Origin: a virus
DNA length: 60,294 nt
Strand: one strand, 5' to 3'
Virus record (IMG/VR): IMGVR_UViG_3300027499_000002
Below the pieces are notes generated by a model. That model was not told where the DNA came from, did not search any database, and worked only from the letters and a program-made list of their open reading frames with translations. The stretch's first letter is position 1; every line of letters begins with the position of its first letter. The position numbers and the translations under genes were made by a program. Below, one piece after another: positions 9,465 to 59,981 of the stretch.

Positions 9465-10391
9465 ATGCAGCGTCCTTTGCCGTTGTGGTCCGAGCTACAC
9501 TTGCAGGAGCTTTACAAGCCTCAGTGGTTCGCAGCATGGAAGGCTCGGGTTCCTCAAGTCGGCTGCGGATGCGATGCCCTGTTCGATGAAATCTTGGAAA
9601 CGTTTCCAGAGGTCTACGGTGACGCTGACCGGCAATTCCTTCGAGGAATCGACTGGCACAACGCTGTGAGTCGCAAACCGAAGGTCAATCATCCTGAGAT
9701 TTCCTACGATCTAGCTCGAACGCTGTGGCGTCACCAGAGGCCGGCAACAGGCCGAACTCGCTGCATCGTGACCGTGGCGACCGGGAGCAAGTTCCGTGAA
9801 CTGCTTGAAGTGACACGGCCAAGTCTAAAAGCCTATGCAGAAAAATGCAACGCTGATTTTATTGAGCTGACGAATCAAACTGAGCTATGGTGGGGTCTGG
9901 AAAAGTTTCGAGCAAGGCACTTCGTCGAGCAGTACGAAGAGACGGTTTTTATCGATGCGGACTGTGTGGTAAACCCTGCTGCGCCTTCAATCTTTGGTCG
10001 GCCTGAATCGCTGGCGTTGCACGATGATTATCCGATGCTGAGCCAAGTCGAGTGGATTAACGCTGAACGATCGTCGGTAGAGGCATCGCTCGGGCTCAAG
10101 TTCGAGCGTCGGGATACTTGTCTGAACTCAGGCGTGGTTTATTCGCGCCGCGATGCTGCTGGCGTGTGGGACCGTCCTGGGTCGGAGATTGCAACAAGTC
10201 ACACTGCCGAGCAGCTATTCGTCGAGCAGTCTGCGTTTCGAATCGGCTATGAAAACCTGGACTCTCGATGGAACTGGCAGTTCTACTTCCGAGACTTTTG
10301 GAAACATGCTGCTGATGCCTGGATCGTTCATTTTGCAACATCGAATCAGAAGCGAGAGAACGCGAGTCGGATGCTAGATATTTGGGGGTGA
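9465..10391 (+). CDS. glycosyltransferase, GT8-like nucleotide-diphospho-sugar transferase fold
   Basis: CIVTVATGSKF...(Rossmann start), the DxD-type motif VFIDADCVV and LNSGVVY support the call. The ORF track starts at 9351, but I prefer ATG 9465, which lies after the upstream stop. Confidence 0.5.
   Translation: MQRPLPLWSELHLQELYKPQWFAAWKARVPQVGCGCDALFDEILETFPEVYGDADRQFLRGIDWHNAVSRKPKVNHPEISYDLARTLWRHQRPATGRTRCIVTVATGSKFRELLEVTRPSLKAYAEKCNADFIELTNQTELWWGLEKFRARHFVEQYEETVFIDADCVVNPAAPSIFGRPESLALHDDYPMLSQVEWINAERSSVEASLGLKFERRDTCLNSGVVYSRRDAAGVWDRPGSEIATSHTAEQLFVEQSAFRIGYENLDSRWNWQFYFRDFWKHAADAWIVHFATSNQKRENASRMLDIWG
9594..9609. repeat. palindrome copy TTGGAAACGTTTCCAg (15/16)
   Basis: Lies inside the glycosyltransferase ORF, where it is read as L-E-T-F-P. 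Confidence 0.9.
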
Positions 10392-10432
10392 GCATTCGAG
10401 CTGTAAGATTTTCTGCAAAGGAGAATCACTGA

Positions 10433-10756
10433 ATGGATCTGTTGTTTTTGAGTGCCGAATTTGCAATGCGATTGCAGGCTGGAGCTGCTGGCTCGCTGGT
10501 GAGTGTTTTGACCTCAAAGCACGAACCAACAGAAAGCGTATCGAAGCGACTCTTTTGTGGGTGGCTCGTCGCGGTGTTCTGCGCTCCGCTTGCGATATCG
10601 CTTGCTGAAGCATTCCTTTTGTCAGAAGAAATCGTCAAGCGTATTGATCGCGCCGATGCCGAGATGGTTTCAGCCTTTTTCGTCGGCCTCGTTGGCTGGC
10701 AAGGAATCAAGTTTGTGAACAAACGCGCGGCAAGGTTTTCGGCTGAAAATGAATGA
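10433..10756 (+). CDS. holin-like membrane protein
   Basis: 107 aa with hydrophobic helices and a good RBS (AAGGAGA). It is the first gene of the cassette that ends in the peptidase. Confidence 0.4.
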   Translation: MDLLFLSAEFAMRLQAGAAGSLVSVLTSKHEPTESVSKRLFCGWLVAVFCAPLAISLAEAFLLSEEIVKRIDRADAEMVSAFFVGLVGWQGIKFVNKRAARFSAENE

Positions 10757-11078
10757 AGTAACGTTTTCCATTCTACAGATCCTCGGACGGTTGGCGGTCG
10801 TTGTGCTTTGCTACCATGCGGTGACGATGGTTTGTTCATGTCATGAAAACTGCACGAAGTTTCGACACAGCCTCCGGACTGTGCTAGGATGGGTATCGGG
10901 TGCGGTCGCGTGCGCCGGGTTGTTCTATCCGGTTGTCGGTGGTGCGGTCGCTTTATTTTTGGTGGCTGCTATTTGGTTTGCGGAGCTAGACTATGAAACG
11001 AAGAGCAAAGCGCAGGCGTTTAGGTTTCCCGAAGTCGGCGAGACAAGTAGTGATGTCGGAAGTGGCGTCAGTCGCTGA
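10749..11078 (+). CDS. membrane protein (holin/antiholin candidate)
   Basis: 109 aa with 2-3 predicted TM helices and an ATGAATGA overlap with the upstream gene. Confidence 0.4.
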   Translation: MNEVTFSILQILGRLAVVVLCYHAVTMVCSCHENCTKFRHSLRTVLGWVSGAVACAGLFYPVVGGAVALFLVAAIWFAELDYETKSKAQAFRFPEVGETSSDVGSGVSR

Positions 11079-11247
11079 ACTGGGGCTGCCGGAAGACGAA
11101 GCGAAAGCCGAGCTTGAGAAGAGAGTGATTGCAAGATTCGATCCTGCATCGATTCTGATTTCTCTTTTGGTTTCCTGGGCAATCAAACAACTGATTGCAT
11201 GGATCTACGGCAAGATAAAGAACAGGGAGATCGGCGACGATGACTGA
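11053..11247 (+). CDS. small C-terminally anchored membrane protein
   Basis: Internal ATG of ORF 10993..11247. It has an acidic N-terminus followed by the TM segment ILISLLVSWAIKQLIAWIY. Confidence 0.3.
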   Translation: MSEVASVAELGLPEDEAKAELEKRVIARFDPASILISLLVSWAIKQLIAWIYGKIKNREIGDDD

Positions 11248-11836
11248 GGAACTGCAACCAGACCCCAAGCCGGATCCAAAGCCCAAGCGGCCAAAGCCTA
11301 AACCTAAGCCAGTATTGAAACCGGACACAAAGCCGGACCCTGAACCTCCGAAGCGGAAACGGAAGCGCGTTCGCAAGCCGACCGTCCAGGGATTCAAAAT
11401 CGATTGGGCCGGGATCGATTGGTACGCAATCGGGCTCGGGCTGCTTGCTCTGATCACGGTCGCGCCCTACGTTCTGCCACTGCTCAAGGACGTTCGAATC
11501 ACTCCGGTTGTGTTCTACGATCTTGGAAACGTTTCCAACTGGTTCGAGACCGTGGCCAGCGACGACCCCAAGGCTGACATGCCGAAATACGTGGATGCAC
11601 TGAGGGCAACCGCATCGGCAGAAATTAGTGATGTTTCAAAAATTGATGAGAAGCTCCAGGAAGAGGTCGAAGCAAACCTCGGGCGTGTGGGCTGGCTGAA
11701 CTGGGGCTTGTTCAATGCCGAGATCCTCAAAGAGATTCGCAAGCTTCGCGACGATAAAAAAATCGACGCAACGGTAAAGAGTCACCAAGCATTTCTATTG
11801 GCCGTCGCTGACGAGCTGGAAAAGGTAGGTCAATGA
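11240..11836 (+). CDS. Pro/Lys-rich membrane-anchored protein (spanin-like by position)
   Basis: The PKPDPKPKRPKPKPKP low-complexity N-terminus is followed by one TM helix. It lies immediately upstream of the peptidase. Confidence 0.35.
   Translation: MTEELQPDPKPDPKPKRPKPKPKPVLKPDTKPDPEPPKRKRKRVRKPTVQGFKIDWAGIDWYAIGLGLLALITVAPYVLPLLKDVRITPVVFYDLGNVSNWFETVASDDPKADMPKYVDALRATASAEISDVSKIDEKLQEEVEANLGRVGWLNWGLFNAEILKEIRKLRDDKKIDATVKSHQAFLLAVADELEKVGQ
11523..11538. repeat. palindrome copy TTGGAAACGTTTCCAA (16/16)
   Basis: Lies inside ORF 11240..11836, where it is read as G-N-V-S. Confidence 0.95.
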
Positions 11837-15260: not shown

Positions 15261-15278
15261 CGTTTCCTTTTTTGCGTT

Positions 15279-15290
15279 GGTGGCGTTGAT
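15279..15290 (+). promoter_or_regulatory. promoter-like motif GGTGGCGTTGAT
   Basis: Preceded by CCTTTTTTGCGTT. A palindrome lies 3 nt downstream and ATG 15336 lies 46 nt downstream. Confidence 0.5.
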
Positions 15291-15293: not shown

Positions 15294-15309
15294 TTGGAAA
15301 CGTTTCCAA
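15294..15309. repeat. palindrome copy TTGGAAACGTTTCCAA (16/16), operator-like position
   Basis: Intergenic, between the promoter-like motif and the AAA+ gene. Confidence 0.95.
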
Positions 15310-15335
15310 GATTCTTCATTCAAACAGGTGAGACT

Positions 15336-16796
15336 ATGCAGGTTTCAAGAGCATTTCGAGCTGGCGTTCCATTGGTTTCTGTGACGACGGGCGACCCAGC
15401 GGCAACGATCAAAACGATCCGAGAGCAGTTCGCTGATTTCCAGGATCCGGTCGGGGTGATTGTGTGGGATGTGGTCCGTGGGGCCAGAACCACGAAGGAC
15501 GATATCAAAGCGACCGAAGCACTGGCCGGACTTCCCCAGCAGGACTACAGCAATTCGCTGATCAATTTCTTGGCTGACCTCGGCGAGCTTGCCAACCGTC
15601 AAGCGGTGATCGTCTGCAACGCGCACAAGTTCCTCGACGACCCTCGGGCGATCCAAGCGGTATGGAATCTCAGGGATGATTTCAAAGCCAGCAAAAAGAC
15701 TTTGGTTCTGCTAGGTGTTGCAACCTTGCCACCGGAGCTGATCCACGATGTGGTCCAGTTCGACGATCCGCTGCCGAACCAAGAGCAACTGCGTGGAATC
15801 ATCTCTACGGTCTGCGAGTGGGGACAAGCCGACGCAAGCCAAGAGACGATCGAGAGCGGTGCGAATGCAGCTATCGGGGTCACAGCGTTCTGTGCCGAGA
15901 ATCTGGCAAGCCTTGCAATGAGCAAGACCGAAGGCTTGGAAGTGGATCAACTGTGGGAATCGAAACGAAAGAAGATCGATCAGACACCGGGGCTTCGCGT
16001 TGTCACCCAGTCGGGGGGCTTCGATAAAATCGGCGGCTGCGATGCGTACAAAACCTTCATGCGTCGGGTGCTGGCCGGCAAAGCGAAGCCTAAGGCGATC
16101 GTCTTCATCGACGAGATTGAAAAGTGCCTCGGGGCATCCGGCTCGGACACCAGCGGGGTATCCCAAGACCAACTTGGTCAACTGTTGTCTTGGATGCAAG
16201 ACAAAAGGGCGACCGGTACTATCCTGGTCGGTCCCCCTGGGGCTGCGAAGTCGGCCGTAGCGAAGGCGGCGGGGTCCGAGGGTGGAATCCCAACGATCCA
16301 ACTTGACCTCGGGGGTACGAAGGGTTCGCTGGTCGGACAGTCTGAGGCACAAATCCGCGAAGCGCTGAAGGTGATCGATGCGATCAGCGGGGGAGAGACC
16401 CTGTGGATTGCGACCTGCAATTCGCTGACGGACCTACCACCGGAACTCAAGCGACGGTTCAAATTGGGAACTTGGTTCTTCGACCTGCCGGATCGGATCG
16501 AACGCGCGGCGATCTGGTCCCTGTACGCTGCGAAGTTCGGCCACACGGATCAAGCTCAGATTCACCGGCTGCTCGACTGCGAATGGACCGGGGCCGAGAT
16601 CGAGTCCTGCTGCGAGATTGCCGACTCGCTCGGGATCACGCTGGACCAAGCAGCGGCCTACATTGTGCCGGTCGCCAAGCAAGCACCAGAAGCAATCGCC
16701 AAGCTACGAGCTGGGGCCGAGGGCCGGTTCCTGTCGGCAAGTGTTCCTGGTCCATACACTCGGCAAAAAGAAATCGCGAAAAGAACGATCGAGTAG
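15336..16796 (+). CDS. AAA+ family ATPase
   Basis: It has Walker A ILVGPPGAAKS, a Walker-B-like AIVFIDEIEK and a sensor/Arg region LWIATCNSLTDLPPELKRRF. I use ATG 15336 with RBS AGGTGAG. Confidence 0.7.
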   Translation: MQVSRAFRAGVPLVSVTTGDPAATIKTIREQFADFQDPVGVIVWDVVRGARTTKDDIKATEALAGLPQQDYSNSLINFLADLGELANRQAVIVCNAHKFLDDPRAIQAVWNLRDDFKASKKTLVLLGVATLPPELIHDVVQFDDPLPNQEQLRGIISTVCEWGQADASQETIESGANAAIGVTAFCAENLASLAMSKTEGLEVDQLWESKRKKIDQTPGLRVVTQSGGFDKIGGCDAYKTFMRRVLAGKAKPKAIVFIDEIEKCLGASGSDTSGVSQDQLGQLLSWMQDKRATGTILVGPPGAAKSAVAKAAGSEGGIPTIQLDLGGTKGSLVGQSEAQIREALKVIDAISGGETLWIATCNSLTDLPPELKRRFKLGTWFFDLPDRIERAAIWSLYAAKFGHTDQAQIHRLLDCEWTGAEIESCCEIADSLGITLDQAAAYIVPVAKQAPEAIAKLRAGAEGRFLSASVPGPYTRQKEIAKRTIE

Positions 16797-16812
16797 TTTT
16801 TTCCGCTCGGTT

Positions 16813-16824
16813 GGTGGCGTTGAT
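16813..16824 (+). promoter_or_regulatory. promoter-like motif GGTGGCGTTGAT
   Basis: Preceded by TTTTTTCCGCTCGGTT. ATG 16862 lies 38 nt downstream. Confidence 0.5.
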
Positions 16825-16861
16825 ATATTGTGATCGTTCTTTTTTTTCACGGAGTTTCAAA

Positions 16862-17764
16862 ATGAGTCTAGGTACACAACTGGCCGAACAGATGAGCGGC
16901 TGCAAGCTCGAAGTCACAAGCTTTTCGTCGGGAAAGAAATTCACCGACGGCCAACGGGCTCGGATGGCTGAGTTCTTCGAGTCCGAGGTCAAGTCGGTTT
17001 CGGGGACACGGCAAATTCTTAACAAGAAGATACCGCAGGTCAAAGCGGTGTACGCAATCATTCGATCGGCCCGCGCTCTGTGGCAGGGCTACACGGTCAA
17101 GTACGAAGAGGGAACCAGACTGATCAAAGCCGACAAGATCGTCTGGATGAACGAGCAGATTGCGAGCTTCCAAGCTCACCTGCAAGCAGCGAAGGATGAG
17201 TTGTGGGCAAACTGGGAAGCGGTCAAGGCTGATGCCAAGACTCGACTGGCCGATCTGTATGTCGATTCGGATTACAACTTCGATGTTCGGCAAACGATCT
17301 GGATCAACATTTCGTACCCATCGGTCCAGCCAGACGGCAAGCTCGAACAGCTTTCTAAGGAACTGTGGGACAAAGAAATGGCAAAGTTCGCCATCAAGTT
17401 CGACGAGGCGGCTCATGCTGCCGAGGCTGCGTTGCGTCAAGAGTTTGCGGCTATGATTGCAGGTGTGGCCGAACGCTTGGAGGGGGGCGAATCTGAGGAC
17501 GGAAAGAAGCGCGTTTTGCAACAGCGAGCGGTCGATAACATCGTTGAGTTCGCGGATCGGTTTCGGGCTCTTTCGATCGGAGACAATGCCGAGCTCGATG
17601 CGCTGGTACGACAAGCCGAGCAGCTTGCGGTCGGGCTAGATACCAAGGCCATGAAAGCCGACTCGGGCCAGCAAACGGCAATGCGAGAAGCGTTCGCACG
17701 GCTCAAGACCTCGATCGATGCCCACGTGGTCACGGCTGCTGAGCGAGTAATCGAATTCGAATAA
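16862..17764 (+). CDS. hypothetical protein (helical)
   Basis: 300 aa. I use the internal ATG of track ORF 16403..17764, because the upstream part overlaps the AAA+ gene out of frame. Confidence 0.55.
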   Translation: MSLGTQLAEQMSGCKLEVTSFSSGKKFTDGQRARMAEFFESEVKSVSGTRQILNKKIPQVKAVYAIIRSARALWQGYTVKYEEGTRLIKADKIVWMNEQIASFQAHLQAAKDELWANWEAVKADAKTRLADLYVDSDYNFDVRQTIWINISYPSVQPDGKLEQLSKELWDKEMAKFAIKFDEAAHAAEAALRQEFAAMIAGVAERLEGGESEDGKKRVLQQRAVDNIVEFADRFRALSIGDNAELDALVRQAEQLAVGLDTKAMKADSGQQTAMREAFARLKTSIDAHVVTAAERVIEFE

Positions 17765-17787
17765 ACGGCGCTTTACTTTTTTCCGTT

Positions 17788-17799
17788 GGTGGCGTTAGA
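17788..17799 (+). promoter_or_regulatory. promoter-like motif GGTGGCGTTAGA
   Basis: Preceded by TTTTTTCCGTT. A palindrome lies 3 nt downstream and ATG 17846 lies 47 nt downstream. Confidence 0.5.
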
Positions 17800-17802
17800 A
17801 GT

Positions 17803-17818
17803 TTGGAAACGTTTCCAA
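17803..17818. repeat. palindrome copy TTGGAAACGTTTCCAA (16/16), operator-like position
   Basis: Intergenic, with the same flank (AGTTTGGAAACGTTTCCAAGATT) as the copy at 15294. Confidence 0.95.
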
Positions 17819-17845
17819 GATTTGAACCTAGTTTTGAGGGAAATC

Positions 17846-18247
17846 ATGAGTCACATAGCTACGGTCGAGGTCGAATTTCGGGACATGGACGCACTAGCGA
17901 AAGCCTGTGTAAAGTGCGGGGTCGAGCTTCGGCAGGACCAAAAAACGTTCAAGTGGTACGGAGGCAAGGTCAGTCCATGCGACTCTGCGATCGTTCATCC
18001 AAACCCAAAAGCGTACCAGATCGGGGTCCACAAGACCGAGACCGGCTTGCGAATCGAGTTCGACCCGTACATGAGCGGATACGGGATGCAGAACGCTGTG
18101 GCGTTCGAGGACGATCTTAGGGGGCTTGGCAAGCTCCAGCAAGCCTATGCGGTCGAGGTCGCTCGAAAACAAGCCAAAAAGCAGGGGTTCTCAGTCCGCG
18201 AGCAAGTGCAAGCGGACGGTCGGGTCAAACTTACTCTTTCGAGGTAA
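17846..18247 (+). CDS. DUF1257 (Ycf35-like) family protein
   Basis: The N-terminus MSHIATVEVEFRDMDALAKAC... and the length fit the DUF1257 pattern MSHxxxIxxxIxDxxxLxxAL. Confidence 0.5.
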   Translation: MSHIATVEVEFRDMDALAKACVKCGVELRQDQKTFKWYGGKVSPCDSAIVHPNPKAYQIGVHKTETGLRIEFDPYMSGYGMQNAVAFEDDLRGLGKLQQAYAVEVARKQAKKQGFSVREQVQADGRVKLTLSR

Positions 18248-18249
18248 TC

Positions 18250-18432
18250 ATGGAATCTGTTGAAATCATCATCGACAAGACTGGCAAGGCGACCGTCGAG
18301 GTCAACGGCTGCACTGGCAAGGGCTGCGAGGCTGTGACTGAGGCAATCGAAAAAGCACTCGGTACGGTCTCGGCAAACGATCGCAAGCCGGAATACTTTC
18401 AGCAGGCTCAGGGCCAGCAGGCGAAGCGATGA
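18250..18432 (+). CDS. DUF2997-like small protein
   Basis: 60 aa. IIIDKTGKATVEVNGCTGKGCEAVTEAIEKALG fits the DUF2997 pattern, and it sits adjacent to the DUF1257 gene. Confidence 0.5.
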   Translation: MESVEIIIDKTGKATVEVNGCTGKGCEAVTEAIEKALGTVSANDRKPEYFQQAQGQQAKR

Positions 18433-18757: not shown

Positions 18758-19087
18758 ATGAGCGCGTTGCAAGACCGTCCAAGGATGAAGTTCTACAAAA
18801 TCCATTTTCGGAGAAAAAAGCCAGACGTTTCCAAGATTTGTTTTGTGGTAGGAATCGAAGAAGACAAAGCCTTCGAAAACCTAAGAGCCTTGCACCCAAT
18901 TTTCGAGCACAAGTTTCGAGGATGGACATTTGGCTACGCCCCAATCTCCGAGAGCAATTTCGAGCGAAGGATACAAGAGGCGCAAGAAACAAGCTTGATC
19001 GATTTTGACCATCGGCACCCAGACCGTCTGTTCGAGGATATCAAGAATATCAGTGGTAACTTTTTTGACCCATGGCGCTTTACTTGA
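18758..19087 (+). CDS. hypothetical protein
   Basis: The internal ATG at 18758 lies directly after the upstream TAG. 109 aa. Confidence 0.5.
   Translation: MSALQDRPRMKFYKIHFRRKKPDVSKICFVVGIEEDKAFENLRALHPIFEHKFRGWTFGYAPISESNFERRIQEAQETSLIDFDHRHPDRLFEDIKNISGNFFDPWRFT
18825..18835. repeat. palindrome half-site ACGTTTCCAAG
   Basis: It shares the right flank CGTTTCCAAGATT with the copies at 15294 and 17803. It lies inside ORF 18758..19087. Confidence 0.6.
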
Positions 19088-19094
19088 TCGGTTT

Positions 19095-19106
19095 GGTGGC
19101 GTTAGA
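19095..19106 (+). promoter_or_regulatory. promoter-like motif GGTGGCGTTAGA
   Basis: ATG 19123 lies 17 nt downstream. Confidence 0.4.
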
Positions 19107-19122
19107 AGGGTGGAGGATTGCA

Positions 19123-19362
19123 ATGGAAATCACACTTTTGGTTGGTGCTTCGGTCGAAGCAATTTACGCAGATGATGCGGTCGAACTGCTCAAAGATCTT
19201 GGAAACGTTTCCATCCGGCGAGCATCGCACGTTGAGCCAGAAGGTGACGGCTGGTCGGCTGATATGTCGCCGGTCGGTGGTCCAGTCCTCAGTGGTTTCT
19301 CGAAGCGTCAAGATGCGATCGACGCTGAAATCAAGTGGTTAAGGAGGAACAAAAATTTGTAG
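19123..19362 (+). CDS. hypothetical protein
   Basis: 79 aa (MEITLL...). Its 3' end (DAIDAEIKWL) is duplicated at 19830. Confidence 0.5.
   Translation: MEITLLVGASVEAIYADDAVELLKDLGNVSIRRASHVEPEGDGWSADMSPVGGPVLSGFSKRQDAIDAEIKWLRRNKNL
19199..19214. repeat. palindrome copy TTGGAAACGTTTCCAt (15/16)
   Basis: Lies inside ORF 19123..19362, where it is read as G-N-V-S. Confidence 0.9.
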
Positions 19363-24175: not shown

Positions 24176-24205
24176 TAGGTGGCTGCAATACGAAAGGGAA
24201 AAGCC

Positions 24206-25069
24206 ATGTTGCAAATGGAAAATCTGGAGTTCTCGGAAAAGTTCGATCTGTTGGCTGCGGCTCTTGCCGCGTTTCATCTGGAATGCCCGAAGGTCAAAAA
24301 GACTACGTACAACAAGCACCACGAAAAGATGTACGCCGACCTGGGGAATATTCTTCAAGTGGTCAACCCTGTGCTTGCGAAGCATGGTCTGTCGGTGGTT
24401 CAAATCCCGTTGGGTGAACTGACCCTGATTACGATGCTGCTTCATACTTCCGGGCAGTTCATTAAAGCGACGACCCCGATCCGGGTAATGGAAGTGATCG
24501 TCAAGCGGGGAAACGGGAAAGAAATTCCGGACACGATCGGCGTGACGCCACAAGCCTACGGAAGCGGACTGACGTACCAGCGACGGTACACGCTGACTTC
24601 TATGCTGTCGATTTGCCTCGATGAAGACGATGACGACGGCGAGGGCGCAGAAGAGGGAGCGAGGCCCAAGAGCAGGTTCTTGGAAACTGACAATCCGGTC
24701 CCCAAAGACGCTTTCGATGCGAAACCGACGCAGCAATCTAAGCCTGAGCCGAAGACACTGGAAATGCTTACCGAGACTCGAATCGGCGAGATCCTGACCA
24801 TGATGGCCTCGGCAAGCGAATCGCAGCTACCGAAGATGGAGCAATCGCTAAACAACCACGGAATCGCAGGAACGATCAGCAAGGACGACTGGGCGATGCT
24901 GTCCGCTACAATGCTGTCGCGAATGATAACCGTGGCGTCAAGCCCGACTGAGTTGGGCAAGGTCACAAGCAAGCTTGCAGCGTACCGATCTAAGGGGCTC
25001 GTGTCCGAAGAAGCCTTTGCGAAACTCAACGAATCACTGACAAAGCGAACCGAAGAATTTAAGGTTTAG
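24206..25069 (+). CDS. erf: ERF-family single-strand annealing protein
   Basis: Supported by YADLGNILQVVNPVLAKHGLSVVQ...LLHTSGQ...QAYGSGLTYQRRYTLTSMLSICLDEDDDDG. Confidence 0.7.
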   Translation: MLQMENLEFSEKFDLLAAALAAFHLECPKVKKTTYNKHHEKMYADLGNILQVVNPVLAKHGLSVVQIPLGELTLITMLLHTSGQFIKATTPIRVMEVIVKRGNGKEIPDTIGVTPQAYGSGLTYQRRYTLTSMLSICLDEDDDDGEGAEEGARPKSRFLETDNPVPKDAFDAKPTQQSKPEPKTLEMLTETRIGEILTMMASASESQLPKMEQSLNNHGIAGTISKDDWAMLSATMLSRMITVASSPTELGKVTSKLAAYRSKGLVSEEAFAKLNESLTKRTEEFKV

Positions 25070-26590: not shown

Positions 26591-26597
26591 GGGGAAG

Positions 26598-29630: not shown

Positions 29631-29683
29631 GTGTGACGGGTCGCTGACCCGATTGTTTCTGAAAAGATTTGAAAGGGCAGGAA

Positions 29684-39716: not shown

Positions 39717-39732
39717 TTGGAAACGTTTCCAA
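39717..39732. repeat. palindrome copy TTGGAAACGTTTCCAA (16/16; 18-bp palindrome 39716-39733)
   Basis: Intergenic, in an operator-like position. Confidence 0.95.
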
Positions 39733-44050: not shown

Positions 44051-44644
44051 CTAGAAGCTCTCCGAGTCTGCGAACCTCATAACGTCCTCTGAATTCAGCG
44101 TGACAAATCCTAGTCCAGTCCAAGCCATAATCCCGACAGCAACGTGAACCAAGTTCGCCGGTGTGTCGGATGAGTCGATCGACATAAGGGAGACGATCGG
44201 CCGCTCGGACTGGACCCCGTAAAGATACCGAGCCGCATCGCGTTTCATGCAGACGCCTTCTAATTTTGCGACGTTGCTTTTTTCTGCACAGTTTCTAGCC
44301 CACTCGACGGTCGAGTAGTTCACCCCGTTGATAAGTCGGACCTGTAGATCGTACCGATGCAGGATGCTTTTGGGCGTTGGCCGGCGCTCGAAGAAGTACG
44401 ACGATTCGGCGATCGTGATGTACCCCTGGGGAGTCTCATGGTACTTAATTGGGGGGATGGTAAGCTGATCGATTCGGCGTTTGAGGCTGCGATCGTACTG
44501 CCAGCGGTGACGACCGGACAGGTGGGCTATGACGGTGTTTCGGCTCAGGCCGAGTGTGGATGCAATCTGCTTTTTCGGGTATCCTCGATGGGCTTGGAAG
44601 TGGATCTGATAGATGGTCTGGTTGTCGCATCGCATGGTGAGCAA
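44051..44644 (-). CDS. helix-turn-helix DNA-binding protein (the only minus-strand gene)
   Basis: It carries the HTH KKQIASTLGLSRNTVIAHLSG. It is divergent from the portal gene, with only 32 bp between the two start codons. Confidence 0.5.
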   Translation of the reverse strand: MLTMRCDNQTIYQIHFQAHRGYPKKQIASTLGLSRNTVIAHLSGRHRWQYDRSLKRRIDQLTIPPIKYHETPQGYITIAESSYFFERRPTPKSILHRYDLQVRLINGVNYSTVEWARNCAEKSNVAKLEGVCMKRDAARYLYGVQSERPIVSLMSIDSSDTPANLVHVAVGIMAWTGLGFVTLNSEDVMRFADSESF

Positions 44645-47600: not shown

Positions 47601-48306
47601 TGAGGTCGCCTATTATGGCAAGGACGCTGATATCATCGCTGAGGGTCGAGACTCGAAGGGCCGCAAGCAACGAGCGGAACGACCGGACTACAGGCAAGGA
47701 CTGAGCGACCAAAACAACGCTCGAATCGCGAAGGAGCTGACACCAAAAATGGACGCAATCCGAAAGCAGTTGCGTGAGGATGCCATCGACGGAAACGAAG
47801 AATCGAAGGTGCTCTATCTGATCGCAATGACTGGATTCCGGATCGGCGGAAAGGGTGACGGCAAAGCCGAAACCGAAGCGTTTGGAGCCTCGACGCTAAG
47901 GGGCGAACACGTGAAGATCAAAGGGGATACTGTCACGTTCGATTTCCCAGGGAAAAAAGGCGTCCAACAGCAACATTCTCTGAAAGATTCTGTTGTGGCT
48001 AGCTGGTTTGGTGGCGTTAAACCTGAGGAGAATCTGTTCAAAACTCGGGATGTCAAAGTCCGTGAGGCATGGCAAGAAAAGTATGGTGGCGTCAAAGTCC
48101 ACGATATTCGACACGCCGTTGCATCGGAACTGGCAAAGGCAAACCTAGCGAAACTGATTCCACCTAAGCCCAAGAACAAGAAAGAATCCGACGCCTTGAA
48201 AACGAAGGTCGGAACGATCGTAGGCGAAAAGCTTGGCAACAATCCAAGCCAAGCCATTGGCACGTACATTGACCCATCCCTTTGGAAAGTATTGCAGGTC
48301 GCATAA
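44677..48306 (+). CDS. portal protein fused to a polyvalent C-terminal extension (PARP-like ADP-ribosyltransferase plus type IB topoisomerase)
   Basis: One uninterrupted 1209-aa ORF. Residues 1-470 are portal-sized and followed by the MuF gene. Residues 590-662 carry the FGD..RHNC..YWSC module. Residues 750-830 contain NFAEWFGDSKVVD..VVYHGT...GKGIYSS...YVKLENP. Residues 965-1209 contain FRIGG..STLRGEHV..FDFPGKKGV..VHDIRH..GTYIDPSLW. Confidence 0.65.
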   Translation: MNKIVETLQESQSLIESWGDVIDVTEFMTDTPGFFQANSLGVYTQIYDRADGRYRPVYTNESDLKIIRAMGWLLVERVPMAQAWINRLLDYTIGTGFDWTIKASDKRLEKAIQAYVRETLDNSKWSSELERESYAREVGEGECLIEHVYENGQCLAVACEADELTEPARKNELEDWIGIDYVPSWSFGVLTRENRPQNPIGYHFVRNATGTDWDYVTADRVSHWKRNVRSRAKRGFSDFYKPHLYLLRADRVLTNTAEGAATQAAIAYIVEHKDGQQRQAENIVKRFSAPTGRVDPMTGIMERKRKMKPGTRLDVPDGQTYKAGLLGANNSGIYIEVMEAALRLAGSVHAFVEGMLTGSYANNNFASALVAEGPFMQGRLAEQSQRKERMREMILKMIRLGAGKRRFAAVGYDSWDSIQDAITVEVIPSRIVPMDPLKTAQALEVQKRNGWVSDKTCINELGRDIDTETANGLKIGGAENQPGAGGQPGAQTNENTGAAVPDLGNVSKTEQEQGGEWLGITTVQWRRNRKAITDVLTDFARGKLKRNVAKVLLRSIGIPDRGIETILDDASDGQIDSMPQMESLTEAERKTLNKPFRTSGGPKKFSVYVKNQKGNVVKVNFGDPKMRIKRDDPGSRRNFRARHNCDSPGPKWKAKYWSCRMWSKPSVTKILKESLETGEIGWDGRTFVRESWLYRQNPRLLEVRDGDGDGKINDGKPSEAPAEKKDKKKSNTVNPKVLEWAKKKFKDDAKAQNFAEWFGDSKVVDADGNPLVVYHGTDKKFEKFKPSEKGMLGKGIYSSAKKEDYGTYSAYAKKENAAVMPLYVKLENPHIAIAGKPDTFDAKPENDGTIMIDSRTKAIVWAVAKNPDQIKSATGNKGSFNPKSNKINESLQEAKDGDGDGLIDDGKPTQRAAPPKQPKAKAAKGKAVAKPKAPKPTDDEKFQAFEKLIAAKSDEDKAAFRKSKADGVSIPIAWTEVAYYGKDADIIAEGRDSKGRKQRAERPDYRQGLSDQNNARIAKELTPKMDAIRKQLREDAIDGNEESKVLYLIAMTGFRIGGKGDGKAETEAFGASTLRGEHVKIKGDTVTFDFPGKKGVQQQHSLKDSVVASWFGGVKPEENLFKTRDVKVREAWQEKYGGVKVHDIRHAVASELAKANLAKLIPPKPKNKKESDALKTKVGTIVGEKLGNNPSQAIGTYIDPSLWKVLQVA
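46184..46199. repeat. palindrome copy TTGGAAACGTTTCCAA (16/16)
   Basis: Lies in the Gly/Gln-rich linker just after the portal domain, where it is read as G-N-V-S. Confidence 0.95.
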
Positions 48307-49954: not shown

Positions 49955-50049
49955 TCGCGTTAAGTTTTCTGGTGAGCATTTCCCCGGTAGGGTATAGCAA
50001 ATCACAGGTCGGGCAAGTCCAAGAGCCAAACACTTCGGAGCGAATCCAA

Positions 50050-50709
50050 ATGAAAAAAACCTTCCGTCAAATCGTTGAATCCTGCAAGCCTGCCAAACGT
50101 CCTCAAATGGAAGTTGTCGAGTGCCTGCAAGAAGCGATGGACCAGTATCCAATGCTCGGCGAAATGGAAATGAAGCCCGAAGACAAAATGGGCGAGGGCA
50201 TGAAGAAGCCGATGGAAGAAGGCTACGGCGAGGACATGGATCCGGTCGACGGAATCAAGAGCGCGTTCAAGGCCGCGATGATGAAAGTGCTCGACGACGA
50301 TTCGTTGGACACCGCAGGGAAGCTTGCCAAACTGAAATTGATGCTCGCAGTGAGCGACAAGGCATCTGAGGCGATGGGCAGCGGTGCAATGGGCTCAGGC
50401 TCGACCGATGACGCAATGGACTCAGCGATGGAAGAATCCTACAAGGGCAAGATCGCAAGCCTGCAAGAGCAGTTGCAGCGTGCGACCTGCCGATCGTTGC
50501 TGACCGAATCCCAAATCGAGGTCTCCGAGGTCAAGCTTAAGGCACTGCTTCCACTCAAGGAATCCGAGCGAATCGAGTTGGTCAAGAGCTGGAAATCTGG
50601 AAACGTTTCCAAGCCTCGACCCGCTCGAACCGGCTCAGTGATGCAGGAAAGCTCGGTTGCGACCGAGTACCCAAAGACCTCCGAGGACTTCCGACGAGCC
50701 CTTAACTAG
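50050..50709 (+). CDS. scaffolding protein candidate
   Basis: An acidic, Met/Glu/Lys-rich helical protein upstream of the capsid genes. Confidence 0.45.
   Translation: MKKTFRQIVESCKPAKRPQMEVVECLQEAMDQYPMLGEMEMKPEDKMGEGMKKPMEEGYGEDMDPVDGIKSAFKAAMMKVLDDDSLDTAGKLAKLKLMLAVSDKASEAMGSGAMGSGSTDDAMDSAMEESYKGKIASLQEQLQRATCRSLLTESQIEVSEVKLKALLPLKESERIELVKSWKSGNVSKPRPARTGSVMQESSVATEYPKTSEDFRRALN
50597..50612. repeat. palindrome copy cTGGAAACGTTTCCAA (15/16)
   Basis: Lies inside the scaffold candidate, where it is read as G-N-V-S. Confidence 0.9.
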
Positions 50710-51480: not shown

Positions 51481-51549
51481 CCATTCGAAACAAGTTGCTC
51501 CTATCGTGGGGGCGGCGGTAAGTTTTCTCTAAGAGAATTGAAAAGAAAC

Positions 51550-52704
51550 ATGCGAAACGCGAAAACAAACCGTCACCAGAATCTGCGACGGCTTTACGAG
51601 GCTTCGATCCGAGACAACAACGTCGAACGCTTCATGGAAGACTTTCGGCTGGCGCTTGAACAAGATCGAGCAAGCCTTGGGGATCGATATTCGGTCCGCG
51701 AGCTTTTCGAGCAATTTGTTCCGGATGGCCGCGAGGCTGTAGCGATGCTTGCGCCAACGACTTCGGGCGGATTCCAAATCCTGGAGTCTGCGGAACTGGT
51801 CGACACTTCCCAATTTGCGAACATCCTCGGACAGATCACCTACACGGCGACCCTGAACGGGTACAACGCACCGGAGTATATCGGAGACCAACTGGTCGAA
51901 ACGATTCCGACTGTGTTCTCAGGTGAGCGGATTCCTGGTGTGGGACGGCTCGGCGATGACGTTGATATCGTTTCTGAGGGTGCGGAATACCCGAACGCAG
52001 TTTTCGGTGAAGAGTTCGTCGACACGCCCGAGACGATCAAGCGTGGTCTGATCCTCAATGTGACCCGAGAAGCGATCTTCTTCGATCGTACCGGGGTGCT
52101 GATGAGCGAATGTGGTAAGACCGGCGAGCGAGTTCGCGTGAGCAAAGAAAAGCGGATCTTCGATGTGGTCTGCGGGATCGTTACAATCTATCGCCGAAAC
52201 GGTGCGGCTGCGGTTGCAACTTATCAAAGCGAAAACACCGTCTCGAATACGCTTGCTGACTTTACCTCGATCGATACGGTCGAGCAGAAGTTCAACACGA
52301 TGAGCGACCCGATCACTGGCGAACCGATTTCAATCGAGCTCGATACGATCTTGGTCCCCAAGGCCCTGAGCAACCTTGCAGGCCGAATCATGACAGCAAG
52401 CCAAACTCGAAGCGGAACGAACAGCGGGAACACTCAAACGTATGTTCCTGGGAACTCGGTCAACGTGAATGCAAGGGTTTTGACAAGCCCCTATGTTCGC
52501 CAGAAGACGACCAACGATACGACTTGGTTTGCCGGTCGACCTCGTGAAGCTTTCGTCTACATGCAAAACTGGCCGTTGACAGTGACCCAAGCCGGAGAGA
52601 ATTCCGAAGTCGGATTCACCCGGGACATTGTCGTTCGGTACAAGACCTCGGAGCGGGGCGCGGCAGGCGTTCGCGATCGACTCAAGATGTGCCGTTGCAC
52701 TTAA
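51550..52704 (+). CDS. major capsid protein (HK97-fold candidate)
   Basis: About 384 aa, in the expected position. It is followed by the strongest terminator in the genome. I use ATG 51550, although the track starts at TTG 51538. Confidence 0.65.
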   Translation: MRNAKTNRHQNLRRLYEASIRDNNVERFMEDFRLALEQDRASLGDRYSVRELFEQFVPDGREAVAMLAPTTSGGFQILESAELVDTSQFANILGQITYTATLNGYNAPEYIGDQLVETIPTVFSGERIPGVGRLGDDVDIVSEGAEYPNAVFGEEFVDTPETIKRGLILNVTREAIFFDRTGVLMSECGKTGERVRVSKEKRIFDVVCGIVTIYRRNGAAAVATYQSENTVSNTLADFTSIDTVEQKFNTMSDPITGEPISIELDTILVPKALSNLAGRIMTASQTRSGTNSGNTQTYVPGNSVNVNARVLTSPYVRQKTTNDTTWFAGRPREAFVYMQNWPLTVTQAGENSEVGFTRDIVVRYKTSERGAAGVRDRLKMCRCT

Positions 52705-53653: not shown

Positions 53654-54009
53654 CCATCAAATGCAGTATCGTTTCGGTTACGATTCCTAGCACCGAAACC
53701 GAAAGCAACTCTGTTGATATTCCCGAGGGCCAAAGCCTGTGTGCAATCTCGACGAACGAGGACGGATTCGACGGAGCAAACGTTGGGTATCAAGTCCAGT
53801 TTGACGGAACAAACTGGCTGCGGGTTCATGCCGTGGATTCGACGACCCATCACACAACGCTACTCGGAGCGACCAAGGGCTATGTCCCTGTCAACTCTAA
53901 CCTGTTCCTAGCTTCGGCTGCTGGGTACAAAGCAAAGATCCGCCTAAAGGCTGCAACGGCACAAACCGGTGCAATCACGTTCCAACTTCACTTCCGAGAG
54001 ATTCAATGA
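53650..54009 (+). CDS. hypothetical structural protein
   Basis: 119 aa with an ATGA overlap. Confidence 0.4.
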   Translation: MTIKCSIVSVTIPSTETESNSVDIPEGQSLCAISTNEDGFDGANVGYQVQFDGTNWLRVHAVDSTTHHTTLLGATKGYVPVNSNLFLASAAGYKAKIRLKAATAQTGAITFQLHFREIQ

Positions 54010-54473
54010 TGCAACCGAAGATTTTTGGCTTTCCTGAGTTCGCAATGGGTATCGCTCTTGGGCTGATTCTCGGTGTTTTCATTGGGATTGTGCAACCAAA
54101 GCTTGGAAACGTTTCCAAGAATCAGGACGCTGATCCGACCGACAAGATCGTCGCAGAGCTTACCGAAGCCTATCAGCAAATGCTCGCCGAGCGTAAGGCC
54201 AACGCTGAAAAGCAGTCCGAGCCTCAAGCGAGCTTGGAACCGACGATCAAAAAAGAGATCATCGTTTTTACACTTCCGAATTGTCCACCGTGCAAGACTT
54301 GGCTGGAAAATTCAAAACCATTTTGGGATGCCGGATGGACGGTCGCAGAGTGCGACAATACGCAGCATTCCTACACCAAGGCTCCAACGTTTCAAATCTG
54401 TGTCGGAGACCGGTGCTATACGTGCGTAGGCTCGCTGTCTCTGGAGTATGCTGAGCAACTGGCAAGGAGATAG
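54006..54473 (+). CDS. membrane-anchored thioredoxin-fold protein (CPPC)
   Basis: It has an N-terminal TM helix (FAMGIALGLILGVFIGIV) followed by IIVFTLPNCPPCKTW. Confidence 0.55.
   Translation: MMQPKIFGFPEFAMGIALGLILGVFIGIVQPKLGNVSKNQDADPTDKIVAELTEAYQQMLAERKANAEKQSEPQASLEPTIKKEIIVFTLPNCPPCKTWLENSKPFWDAGWTVAECDNTQHSYTKAPTFQICVGDRCYTCVGSLSLEYAEQLARR
54103..54118. repeat. palindrome copy TTGGAAACGTTTCCAA (16/16; 18-bp palindrome 54102-54119)
   Basis: Lies in the linker after the TM helix of the thioredoxin-fold protein, where it is read as G-N-V-S. Confidence 0.95.
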
Positions 54474-58102: not shown

Positions 58103-58552
58103 ATGGCTGTTGTCACTACATTCTGCGACTTTTTCGGATGCTCGGGCGGTGGTCCAGCTCCGAGCCCTGGATCGGGAAGCGTACCGAACCTGCTGTCTGT
58201 AGATTACCAAGGCGACTGGCTGTACCTCGACGGTATCGAGGATCTGACGTTCGCATTCGGGCCACAACGGTACACGAACCAAACGGCATCGGGGACCGTG
58301 GCAAAGGCAAAACGATCGGCATTGACTGATCGAGAGGTTGCGGTCGCTGCTTCGACTTTCGGCTATGAACCGGATGATATGACGTTCGTAGTTTGGGCAG
58401 AGACTTTGGTTGACACGACGAATACAATTATCGAGCCGGAACCGGGGGACAAGTTCACAGCGTTTGATTTTGACTGGATCATCAAGAGCAAAAAACGCAA
58501 CGCTGATCTTTCTCAGTGGCGATGCACGGTCAGAAAGAGCACGAAGGAATGA
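58103..58552 (+). CDS. head-tail connector candidate
   Basis: 149 aa, immediately upstream of the gp10-like gene. Confidence 0.35.
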   Translation: MAVVTTFCDFFGCSGGGPAPSPGSGSVPNLLSVDYQGDWLYLDGIEDLTFAFGPQRYTNQTASGTVAKAKRSALTDREVAVAASTFGYEPDDMTFVVWAETLVDTTNTIIEPEPGDKFTAFDFDWIIKSKKRNADLSQWRCTVRKSTKE

Positions 58553-59013
58553 AAGACATATCGATCGAACTTCTGGTCGATGACGTCGAGCAGACGATCG
58601 GTCAATTGCAGTCGTTTGACTTCAAGCCGGTCTTTGAGTCGGTGCTTGATGTTTTGCACTCTGGATTCGAATCGAACTTCGATCAGACTCGAGCGCCGTA
58701 CGGAACGTGGCCTCCGCACTCCCCGAAGACGATTGCTCTTTACGGTCCGCACCCTCTATTGATTTTGACCGGGGCGATGAAAGCCGCTGTCACGCAGTCG
58801 GGATCGGCTGACCGGATAGAAGAAATCACGACAACGGAAGCAATAATTGGAACATCGCTTTTTTATGCACCGTATCAACAGTACGGGACTTCTGGACCAA
58901 ACCCGATTCCTGCAAGACCTTTTCTATGGCTTGAAGGTGATTATGTCGACCAAGTACACGAAAGATTCGCTGATGAAGTTGCAAGCAGATTACTCGGAAT
59001 CACAACTCCCTGA
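58549..59013 (+). CDS. HK97 gp10-like head-tail/tail completion protein
   Basis: Contains LILTGAMKAAVT...IGTSLFYAPYQQYGT...IPARPFLWL. I use ATG 58549 in an ATGA overlap. Confidence 0.5.
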   Translation: MKDISIELLVDDVEQTIGQLQSFDFKPVFESVLDVLHSGFESNFDQTRAPYGTWPPHSPKTIALYGPHPLLILTGAMKAAVTQSGSADRIEEITTTEAIIGTSLFYAPYQQYGTSGPNPIPARPFLWLEGDYVDQVHERFADEVASRLLGITTP

Positions 59014-59155
59014 GCTTGAACCGGATAGGATTCCTGCTCCAACTGCTGCGCCGGCAGGCAGCAAAGAGAAGGTTGAAGTCTTGCGACAACGTGTCGAAAA
59101 AAACGAGCAGCTTTGGCATCCTAACGATGATAAGACGATGGTGAAACGATGCTAG
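58943..59155 (+). CDS. hypothetical protein
   Basis: 70 aa. It overlaps the upstream gene by 71 nt, and in the overlap this frame has the more genome-typical codon endings. Confidence 0.35.
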   Translation: MSTKYTKDSLMKLQADYSESQLPELEPDRIPAPTAAPAGSKEKVEVLRQRVEKNEQLWHPNDDKTMVKRC

Positions 59156-59670
59156 GATCGAGAATCAAAATCCTTGGAGACGCAATCGTAGCAACTCTCA
59201 ATCGCGATACGGATCTTGCAGCAAGAGCATTCACGCTTCGCAAGAAACCGTACAACCGAGGGCGAACTTGGGTTCCTGGTGGTCGGGTGTCTCCGCTCGG
59301 TAGCGAAGAACAAACCAACGAGAATTCACAAGACCGGCGAGCGTTCCGGTTTGTGATTTCAGTATCTGACCCAGGCGACGGGGATCTTGTCGGGGGAATG
59401 GAAGATCATCTTGGGGCGATAGAACGCATCGAAAATATCTTTGCGAACAAATCGCACGGCGAAATGCCGATCACGCTGCGGACCACTGCTCAGGCTGCGC
59501 TTGATGCTGCGACGGCTGCGGGGAAATTCCCAACGACAAAAATTCAAGCGATCGAACTCAAGTTTGCTCCGGTCTTCATTGATCCGGCATTCGAGGCCGG
59601 CTACGATGTGAGTTCCTGTATTTTGACGATTGAATGCCTGATTACTCGTTTGGATTCGAAAGCACTATGA
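59149..59670 (+). CDS. tail terminator/neck candidate (by position)
   Basis: 173 aa. Confidence 0.35.
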   Translation: MLGSRIKILGDAIVATLNRDTDLAARAFTLRKKPYNRGRTWVPGGRVSPLGSEEQTNENSQDRRAFRFVISVSDPGDGDLVGGMEDHLGAIERIENIFANKSHGEMPITLRTTAQAALDAATAAGKFPTTKIQAIELKFAPVFIDPAFEAGYDVSSCILTIECLITRLDSKAL

Positions 59671-59981
59671 GCAATGAAAACGTTGGAAAAGCCGAATCGA
59701 TCTTGGAAACGTTTCCAAAAACCGACTCGGTTATCGAGCTGTCCGGACTACCTGAAAGCGGTCTAGTTCCTGCCGAGCAGACCGAAACCAAGGCAACCAT
59801 CGATGGCGTGTGGATTGTCGACGGACGGCTTGCGGTTTGCAATACCGAAGAAGAAGCCGTGAAGCTTTACGAGTCCTGTTTCCATATTCAGACCAGTGCG
59901 ATTCCAAGCGATCGATTCCCAAAGCCGGGGGAAAAGGTCTTGCACTATCGGAAGATCGCGATGTACGGCAGTCCTGAGTGA
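59667..59981 (+). CDS. hypothetical protein
   Basis: 104 aa with an ATGA overlap. Confidence 0.4.
   Translation: MSNENVGKAESILETFPKTDSVIELSGLPESGLVPAEQTETKATIDGVWIVDGRLAVCNTEEEAVKLYESCFHIQTSAIPSDRFPKPGEKVLHYRKIAMYGSPE
59703..59718. repeat. palindrome copy TTGGAAACGTTTCCAA (16/16)
   Basis: Lies inside ORF 59667..59981, where it is read as L-E-T-F-P. Confidence 0.95.

Follow-up and report, generated by a model that had tools for sequence, protein, structure and literature searches.

The phage DNA analysed here, IMG/VR virus record IMGVR_UViG_3300027499_000002 (60,294 nucleotides, referred to below as the window), carries a network of exact copies of one 14-bp palindrome, TGGAAACGTTTCCA, located both at promoter-like elements and inside genes. 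These sites are under purifying selection at the DNA level, and in distant lineages they are replaced by variants of the same palindrome. As judged from sequence comparison, the network implies one very specific, dimeric reader that is encoded by the phage. ParB1, a ParB-family protein encoded at 25246-26130 on the + strand, is the most likely reader; the palindromes would then be the cognate sites of this single dimeric, sequence-specific phage protein, a proposal to which we give about an even chance.

Palindrome copies and selection on DNA

The 14-mer occurs 11 times without mismatch in the window, at 9595, 11524, 15295, 17804, 19200, 25970, 39718, 46185, 50598, 54104 and 59704. None of 100 dinucleotide-shuffled versions reached this count, the mean being 0.25 matches when up to two mismatches were allowed. 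The distribution of the copies is all-or-none: the window and relatives A and B hold 11, 22 and 19 exact copies, respectively, and no copy with one mismatch, and a single copy with two mismatches is found in the window, at 9898. Eight of the 11 copies are part of a perfect 16-mer (TTGG...CCAA), the other three (9595, 19200, 50598) match it in 15 of 16 positions, and two belong to an 18-mer, CTTGG...CCAAG, starting at 39716 and 54102. Eight copies lie inside open reading frames (ORFs), where they are read in differing frames, and three lie between genes, each adjoining a promoter-like element. On these points, a copy number beyond chance, the composition of the flanks and the intragenic copies in different frames, the initial annotation was right. 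The labels glycosyltransferase, spanin-like and thioredoxin-fold that it gave to ORFs found no such backing in those that were scanned, 9351-10391 and 11240-11836, neither of which gave a Pfam match.

A scan of 185,579 genomes for the 16-mer returned single and double matches at about chance level in unrelated taxa and revealed no repeat family and no host. The possibility, raised earlier, that the sequence is a host-derived repeat is not borne out by this result. Some bacterial genomes (L370, L386 and L423; Olsenella, Atopobiaceae and Amycolatopsis) have two 16-mers 30-55 bp apart, an arrangement that resembles paired operators of the LacI family.

Relatives were drawn from IMG/VR and metagenomes, and related loci are designated by L numbers. 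Three near-complete relatives at 70-80% protein identity contain at least 22, 19 and 17 exact copies of TGGAAACGTTTCCA. Seven window sites (11524, 17804, 19200, 25970, 46185, 50598 and 59704) are preserved 14/14 at homologous positions, while their flanks are 63-75% identical in the more distant relatives. Third codon positions are identical in 184 of 190 cases (97%) inside the sites, compared with 1209 of 2101 (57.5%) in the flanks; this comparison used relatives that are at most 85% identical and 90 nt on either side of the site (Fisher p 5e-34, for sequences that are phylogenetically non-independent). Selection on the DNA and not on a peptide, as had been proposed from the window, is supported by this difference, by the retention of the sites in relatives amid diverged flanks, and by a homologous site that encodes LETFP or VATLP depending on the lineage. 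Other sites in the relatives are lineage-specific and align without gaps to unrelated window sequence, so that they arose by substitution in place and not by insertion.

Variant palindromes in related lineages

In distant lineages every copy is replaced by a variant that keeps the AACGTT centre (TGGCAACGTTGCCA, TGTAAACGTTTACA, CCAAACGTTTGG or CGAAACGTTTCG). The dialects, GGAAAC, GGCAAC, GTAAAC, CCAAAC and CGAAAC, are homogeneous within a lineage and different between lineages. TGGCAACGTTGCCA is the dialect of L091/L298, L100, L293, L192 and L020, with 12-14 copies in about 20 kb. TGTAAACGTTTACA is used by L106 and CGAAACGTTTCG by L326 and L022, and L105 holds 21 copies of CAAACGTTTG in 21.5 kb, 8 of which are CCAAACGTTTGG. 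Helicase identity places the GGC lineage within the radiation of GGA lineages, and the GGC dialect is therefore derived. Homologous sites switch in concert, both promoter sites being TGGCAACGTTGCCA in L091. Hybrid half-sites (TGGCAACGTTTCCA and TGGAAACGTTGCCA) occur in the transitional L007, L193, L298 and L500, and the asymmetric hybrid TGTAAACGTTTCCA is present at three homologous positions (window 15295, 17804 and 46185) in lineage D, which comprises L101, L190 and L489-L492 (contig IMGVR_UViG_3300042884_000704 and close relatives). The use of one sequence per genome, the symmetry of the changes and the concerted switching together suggest that one dimeric reader acts in trans and co-evolves with the sites, and they speak against independent hairpins, a mobile element and a host repeat. 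The hybrids of lineage D all have the T-variant half on the same side with respect to the + strand; besides them, this lineage has a single symmetric TGTAAACGTTTACA site and retains GGA at two sites.

The individual sites differ in how widely they are kept. The copy in the linker between the portal and ADP-ribosyltransferase (ART) domains of a 1209-residue fusion protein (46185-46198) is retained in 26 loci with flanks that are 63-92% identical, and is TGTAAACGTTTCCA in lineage D. The copy at 59704-59717, about 37 nt past the start of ORF 59667-59981, is kept in 19 loci (flanks 66-92%), that at 50598-50611, a 15/16 copy close to the 3' end of ORF 49972-50709, in 14 loci, and that at 19200-19213, a 15/16 copy inside ORF 19072-19362, in 11 loci (flanks 66-91%), with loss in L101. 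The copy inside the ParB1 gene (25970-25983), where it encodes the peptide LETFP, is retained in 13 loci and reads TGGCAACGTTGCCA with peptide VATLP in L100 and L091, which use the GGC dialect. The perfect 16-mer at 11524-11537 inside ORF 11240-11836 is kept in four loci (flanks 67-72%), and its homolog in L192 is TGGCAACGTTGCCA. At 9595-9608, inside ORF 9351-10391, the 15/16 copy is present 14/14 in L190 and L027, where the flanks are 74-93% identical. The 18-mer at 54104-54117, inside ORF 54006-54473, is restricted to close relatives (six loci, flanks 87-90% identical); relatives A and B carry other sites near this position.

Of the three intergenic copies, that at 17804-17817, 4 bp 3' of a promoter-like element and upstream of a DUF1257 gene, is kept in 17 loci (flanks 70-89%), and elsewhere the homologous site has adopted the GGC or GTA dialect. 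The copy at 15295-15308, also 4 bp 3' of an element and upstream of an AAA ATPase gene, is TGGCAACGTTGCCA in L091/L298 and TGTAAACGTTTCCA in L101/L190. The 18-mer at 39718-39731 lies 11 bp 3' of its element and is kept in seven loci. In L105, CAAACGTTTG copies at positions equivalent to window sites 15295 and 17804 are found in the gap just upstream of the AAA ATPase homolog (copy at 1136, gene at 1238-2668) and just upstream of the DUF1257 homolog (copy at 4774, gene at 4828-5283).

A different explanation would be that the sites are RNA or DNA hairpins, such as terminators, processing sites, 5' stabilisers or cruciforms, targets of restriction-modification or methyltransferase enzymes, or copies of a small mobile palindromic element, which we consider very improbable. 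Symmetric changes preserve the pairing potential of a hairpin, and the intergenic copies of L105 are found in terminator-like, GC-rich extended palindromes. However, as RNA the hairpins have little stability (-5.4 to -8.9 kcal/mol, z -0.4 to -1.7) and lack a U tract, hybrid sites break the pairing, and independent hairpins would neither share one sequence nor switch in concert. In view of the weak stems, the missing U tract and the invariance of the sequence itself within each genome, intrinsic terminators and structured RNA were rejected. A modification target would be in line with the presence of a phage protein with an N6-methyltransferase domain and of HNH proteins, and with the invariant AACGTT centre, which is a type II recognition sequence (AclI). 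Such a target is expected to be short and avoided or neutral, whereas the specificity found here spans 14 bp, the copies are positively conserved and AACGTT outside the palindromes is about as frequent as expected (16 copies, with 14.7 expected for the whole genome). The restriction-modification interpretation, already mentioned in the initial annotation, was rejected on this basis. A mobile palindromic element was rejected as well, since the sites arise by point substitution in aligned coding DNA and not by insertion; no host genome has the sequence as a repeat family.

The palindromes could also be operators for a host regulator of the LacI/GalR family, in which case the dialects would reflect different hosts. 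Operators in this family have dialects of their own, which the variants match (PurR GCAAACGTTTGC, Cra TGAAACGTTTCA, GalR TGTAAACGTTTACA). All variants found here fit xxxAACGTTxxx with a central CG, they have the 14-18-bp palindromic form with an AAnCGnTT core that is typical of LacI/GalR sites, and the 16-mer is present in bacterial genomes singly or in operator-like pairs with the spacing given above. Natural LacI-family regulons are degenerate, however, and not all-or-none, and a LacI-type helix-turn-helix (HTH; PF00356) was not found among the about 75 phage ORFs scanned. Why a phage would keep, within its genes and under strong purifying selection, 20 or more exact copies of an operator of its host is hard to explain, and the hybrid half-sites and nested dialect switch fit a co-evolving phage protein better. 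We regard host operators as highly unlikely.

ParB1 as candidate reader

ParB1 has a ParB fold and consists of a ParB N-domain, a ParB-type HTH (TTRALAEICGVSHAYIGNLR), a disordered linker, a Cys4 zinc ribbon and two C-terminal helices (residues 253-293). The protein matches PHROG profile phrog_1033 (E 1.6e-10), and in profile searches of the PDB it matches sulfiredoxin, ParB, Spo0J and Noc. The AlphaFold2 (AF2) model has a predicted local distance difference test score of 81, with residues 1-155 mostly about 90 and helices 104-155 about 90, and its top Foldseek matches are Noc, ParB with CDP or CTPgS, and KorB (8qa8, 8qa9), over 140-170 columns that include both domains. Box II (GxxRxxA) is GFCRVMAA, residues 60-67, in which G60 and R63 are invariant. 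In box I (Q-x-R), Q20 and R22 hardly vary, and N95 of box III (ENLQR) is the same throughout. The C-terminal region shows no detectable similarity to the C-terminal domains of ParB or KorB, and the ParA-binding motif LG-(R/K)-GL was not found in the N-terminus. Neither Pfam nor NCBIfam gave an above-threshold match for ParB1 or for the second and third ParB-fold proteins of the phage, ParB2 and ParB3. The initial annotation had listed three ParB-fold proteins, which PHROG profiles confirm, with a site in the gene of one of them, which also holds, and had considered all three as possible binders. A ParB-family protein with an HTH is indeed the best candidate, but only one of the three has a recognisable HTH.

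Orthologs of ParB1 are encoded just upstream of the helicase in every palindrome-bearing lineage with an examinable replication region, including L106 and L105, the ortholog of the latter having a sub-threshold HTH_23 match. The gene harbours its own dialect-switching site (25970). Position 6 of the recognition helix follows the dialect: G or Q goes with GGA, D with GGC, Y with GTA and R with CCA, and the hybrid lineage has V. A change from Gln to Asp together with A to C in the site, and Arg opposite the G-rich strand, would fit ordinary base-contact chemistry. The unrelated phage L326 encodes a ParB-like protein with a similar helix (SRVYVANLR) and an adjoining helicase, and has 8 [CG]GAAACGTTTC[CG] sites in 20 kb.

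A third group (L322, L351 and L360) has a ParB-like protein with a different helix (VTREMVRQH) and 3-4 copies of CCTGCACCGTGCAGG, most of them right behind terminator-like hairpins. L351 also encodes DpdA, QueE and FolE homologs and contains TGCCAA-N3-TTGGCA five times.

Several observations weigh against ParB1 as the reader, or against the mode of action considered below. The covariation rests on about five dialect classes with few independent switches, and within one class helix position 6 varies (G or Q). Most of the distant homologs of the ParB1 family (about 40% identity) are not flanked by any repeated palindrome over distances of up to 20 kb, which means that the protein family alone does not predict a network. 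With the window ParB1, the Pfam ParB_N match stays below threshold and TIGR00180 is far under its cutoff. The glutamate of the ParB 'EN' hydrolysis motif, directly before N95, is replaced (ANYAHG), so that cytidine triphosphate (CTP) hydrolysis by ParB1 is uncertain. Further, a second, clade-specific HTH protein is a plausible reader with a helix that also differs in the GGC lineage, and the ParB1 gene has recombination and replication genes around it (ERF, helicase, HNH-like, RusA-like), from which its role could be in replication or recombination instead of transcription.

The second HTH protein (44051-44644, - strand) is the product of the only clear minus-strand gene. If it were the reader, the palindromes would be its operators or roadblocks, comparable to mycobacteriophage stoperators or to the C1 operators that are dispersed over the P1 genome; we consider this unlikely. 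The protein has weak GerE, HTH_23 and Terminase_5 matches, with an N-terminal GerE/LuxR-like HTH and possibly a second HTH that is Xis/MerR-like. It is predicted to bind DNA and is found in this clade only (8 protein clusters among 5.8 billion proteins), with a distribution that parallels the close clade, and its gene is the sole divergently oriented one. A single-sequence search with it likewise returned close relatives alone; loci L022 and L023 do not extend as far as the portal and HTH genes. In the GGC lineage its recognition helix is unique (ARNTVAWHL vs ARNTVTAHL), and in relative A a palindrome site is located at the 3' end of its gene. However, the helix is identical (LARNTVTAHLSG) in lineage D, which has the hybrid TGTAAACGTTTCCA, and in L500, which has mostly TGGAAACGTTTCCA, and it varies freely within the GGA class. 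No homolog is detectable beyond the close clade even though L105, L106 and L326 have networks, the corresponding regions being outside the coverage of these loci. The AF2 model is confident only for the N-terminal HTH and poor beyond residue 60, and its Foldseek matches are not significant.

Two other candidates were rejected. The region-4 helix of the phage sigma factor, named as a possible binder in the initial annotation, shows free variation inside a single dialect, and L105 has no detectable homolog. The 7-deazaguanine cluster with its DpdA homolog and two ParB-like proteins is entirely absent from L091 and L100, both of the GGC dialect, which keep 14 and 7 palindrome sites, respectively. 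This cluster and its ParB-like proteins are thus not required for the network.

If ParB1 is the reader, the sites might still serve replication or recombination, as entry points for recruitment of the adjacent helicase by ParB1 or for nicking by an HNH-like or ParB-fold nuclease. This would start replication that depends on recombination, for which the surrounding genes encode an ERF annealase, a PDDEXK exonuclease and a RusA-like resolvase. Given the gene neighbourhood this is the main functional alternative, although we hold it to be rather improbable. The ParB1 gene lies between those for ERF (24179-25069) and the helicase (26568-28202), which is followed by HNH-like (28747-29205) and RusA-like (29147-29557) genes, and the order of a ParB-like gene and then a helicase gene recurs in the unrelated phages L362, L326, L032 and L324. 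The majority of the sites are away from promoters, and a site within the initiator's own gene recalls the lambda origin, which lies within gene O. On the other side, so many strongly conserved origins or cut sites (11-22 per 60 kb) would be out of the ordinary, the genome would break if both strands of a palindrome were cut or nicked, and the ParB-helicase module of the unrelated phage L362 is not accompanied by a repeated palindrome. A replication role also leaves the enrichment at promoter elements unexplained.

Placement of the sites and possible mode of action

The promoter-like element TTTTTTCC-N8-10-GG-TGGCGTT-AGA is present in about 14 copies, all on the + strand and mostly intergenic or upstream of genes, which span window positions 12861-48018 (e.g. 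13427, 16815, 19097, 21046, 38367, 39799, 41434 and 42334). It is plausibly read by the phage sigma factor of the extracytoplasmic function (ECF) type (29669-30145). Three of the about 14 elements have a palindrome 4-11 bp downstream, all on the + strand: TTTTTTGC-N5-TGGCGTT-GAT at 15267-15290, upstream of the AAA ATPase operon; TTTTTTCC-N5-TGGCGTT-AGA at 17776-17799, upstream of the DUF1257 operon; and TTTTTCC-N11-TGGCGTT-AGA at 39677-39706. From the geometry of the element, these palindromes would sit about where transcription should start. The position of three copies just downstream of a promoter-like motif had been noted before and holds, with a motif that is broader than was stated; the operator-like placement deduced from it stands for these three copies, which are a minority of the sites.

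Sites are enriched between genes (3 of 11 in the window and 9-10 of 22 in genome A). The intergenic sites of genome A are often right behind a stop codon or terminator, and its intragenic sites encode linker-like peptides in all three frames.

The conserved module behind two of the palindrome-bearing promoters (window 15294-18432) encodes the AAA ATPase, a protein at about 16800-17764, DUF1257 and DUF2997. The first three are also found in the distant L105, and the DUF2997 ORF has a homolog in L106. In L105 (contig IMGVR_UViG_3300028388_003135) the intergenic copies at 1136, 4774 and 6165 are within a longer GC-rich palindrome, GCCCCAAACACAAACGTTTGGGGC, that resembles a terminator stem. At 2747, 3766 and 4774 of this contig the palindrome is followed by a conserved TAGGCA..AAAGTTC motif, which places it upstream of a putative promoter, whereas the window palindromes are downstream.

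In view of the above, we infer that ParB1 reads the sites, binds a nucleoside triphosphate (NTP) and slides, and from the same sequence comparisons a purpose for the network may be proposed. A ParB1 dimer would dock via its HTH on each 14-bp palindrome, after which the N-domains would engage, probably in an NTP-dependent manner, so that loading or nucleation could take place at each site. The presence of 11-22 such entry points in 60 kb would bring the entire phage genome within reach of ParB1. At the three promoter-proximal copies ParB1 would sit near the transcription start and repress or time those operons. The remaining copies would be extra loading sites or roadblocks, located where the sequence is cheapest to keep, such as intergenic gaps and protein linkers. 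Our own reading, by analogy with KorB-OB, is that a few sites may be operators and that the rest may be additional loading sites kept where the genome can afford them.

It is conceivable, if less likely than not, that the clade uses such a ParA-less ParB-fold clamp and its tens of exact loading sites as a genome-wide system of 'self' tagging and control, the code of which has been switched repeatedly by changing one helix residue along with all of the about 10-40 sites. Related co-infecting phages would then no longer cross-react, and the network would be the phage counterpart of plasmid incompatibility or of the dialects of DNA uptake sequences, acting on the timing of transcription or on the organisation of replicating phage DNA. 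If ParB1 reads the sites, whatever their purpose, a KorB-like ParB-fold network exists in a seemingly lytic phage, and the dispersed palindromes of Cluster O mycobacteriophages have a candidate explanation. The dialect series with its hybrid intermediates would be a dataset on how a protein and dozens of sites change specificity together, and the one-residue prediction (G/Q, D, Y or R at helix position 6) could be checked directly.

Comparison with known systems

Plasmid RK2 has about a dozen identical palindromic OB sites over its 60-kb replicon. Their reader KorB forms a CTP-dependent clamp that is loaded at OB, slides along the DNA and shuts off promoters at a distance (PMC11790492). Similar to KorB/OB, the candidate reader combines a ParB fold with an HTH, and the sites are located at promoters as well as far from any; multiple identical 13-16-bp palindromes, some at promoters and some distal, are the mark of ParB, KorB and Noc systems and are found here. 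The systems differ in that the replicon here is an apparently virulent phage and not a plasmid, that it revealed neither a ParA/IncC partner nor a recognisable KorA-like clamp lock, and that the C-terminal part of ParB1 is a zinc ribbon with helices instead of the KorB dimerisation domain. Further differences are the position of the promoter-proximal sites, which is just downstream of the promoter element, and the number of sites, from 11 to at least 22, with a sequence that has diversified into dialects. Because no ParA was found among the ORFs scanned, this is not a ParABS partition system, and the network would work like KorB-OB of RK2 rather than in partition. The likeness to parS and KorB drawn in the initial annotation therefore holds for the candidate reader but not for partition. 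What we describe would be a network of the ParB/OB type that operates without ParA in a clade of apparently virulent phages; dialect switching was not found described in the literature examined.

The initial annotation knew of no phage equivalent, which is incorrect as far as the phenomenon is concerned. The non-temperate Cluster O mycobacteriophages (Corndog and others) carry 34 copies of the 17-bp TGTTCGGNNNCCGAACA with invariant arms, which are dispersed, 14 being intergenic and about a third in coding DNA, and for which a dimeric DNA-binding protein was predicted (PMC4351075). The function of these repeats was unknown when they were described in 2015; the phages encode proteins with ParB-like domains that the authors did not link to the repeats, and the paper proposes no reader and makes no mention of dialect switching (PMC4351075). 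Both cases thus show many dispersed copies with invariant arms, intergenic and intragenic, in apparently non-temperate phages. However, the Cluster O repeat has 7-bp arms with a 3-bp spacer and a different sequence, and the phages are unrelated (no match of the major capsid protein). Corndog gp90, which contains a ParB_N domain, is not similar to ParB1 by BLASTP.

The chromosomal ParB-parS and Noc-NBS systems also use 16-bp palindromes with an ACGT or CCGG centre that are read by a protein with a ParB N-domain and HTH, and ParB and Noc are the best structural matches of ParB1. Specificity of the ParB and Noc paralogs reportedly diverged via few helix residues (Jalal et al. 2020). Unlike these proteins, ParB1 has no ParA, ParA-binding motif, membrane-targeting helix or canonical C-terminal domain, the half-site is different, and the sites are on a phage genome and at higher density. 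In the temperate phage N15, a linear plasmid-prophage with SopA/SopB partition genes, four identical palindromic centromere sites for SopB, a ParB-family protein, are scattered, some of them in or near phage genes. This resembles the several identical palindromes found here, but the window shows no ParA and no sign of lysogeny and has many more sites.

Accessory ParB proteins that activate DNA-modifying enzymes (5mYOX-associated ParB; bacterial DpdB with DpdA) are without a DNA-binding domain. The second and third ParB-fold proteins of the window (31636-32466 and 32463-33062) are comparable in that they are encoded upstream of a DpdA-like gene and preQ0-pathway genes (PMC13229309). A difference from ParB1 is that accessory ParBs are not linked to dispersed palindromes, and the network here persists without the DpdA cluster. 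The stoperators of Cluster A mycobacteriophages are asymmetric, oriented with transcription and read by the prophage repressor (PMC4351075). By contrast with these and with the P1 C1 operators, the sites described here are perfect palindromes, and the scanned ORFs revealed neither an integrase nor a repressor-type gene. In a 2025 survey of the ParB-CTPase fold, fusions of ParB with an HTH were almost exclusively on plasmids and chromosomes (PMC12704722).

Genome and gene content

The first and last 127 bases of the window (1-127 and 60168-60294) are identical, which indicates a circular assembly with a true genome length of 60,167 bp. A search of 50,697 deposited phage genomes with 8 kb of DNA (megablast) and with the major capsid protein (tblastn) gave no match, so that no cultured relative came to light. 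Among the about 75 ORFs scanned there was no integrase, ParA-type ATPase or LacI-type protein, and the ATPase matches were limited to an FtsH/Cdc48-type AAA protein and the helicase.

Recombination and replication are represented by a module that encodes a PDDEXK nuclease, ERF, a superfamily 2 (SF2) helicase and the HNH-like and RusA-like proteins. The HNH-like zinc nuclease (CWAC...ERAHI.NKPRREDRR...C..CH..HGE, in window 28747-29557) is common to all lineages examined, including L105; its gene overlaps the start of the RusA-like resolvase gene, and Pfam recognises neither. The 7-deazaguanine cluster (33059-36323) encodes a DpdA-like transglycosylase, a YhhQ-like protein, QueD, QueE and FolE. 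As the second and third ParB-fold genes lie directly upstream of the DpdA-like transglycosylase and the queuosine-precursor genes, their products look like modification accessories. No QueC was recognised in this DNA-modification cluster (31636-36323 with the ParB-fold pair). The structural genes include those for the large terminase (36909-38348) and capsid protein (51538-52704). The fusion protein of 1209 residues that contains site 46185 (44677-48306) combines a lambda-type portal, an ART-PolyVal ADP-ribosyltransferase and the catalytic core of a eukaryotic-type topoisomerase IB, and the portal ORF of relative A has only 733 codons for amino acids.

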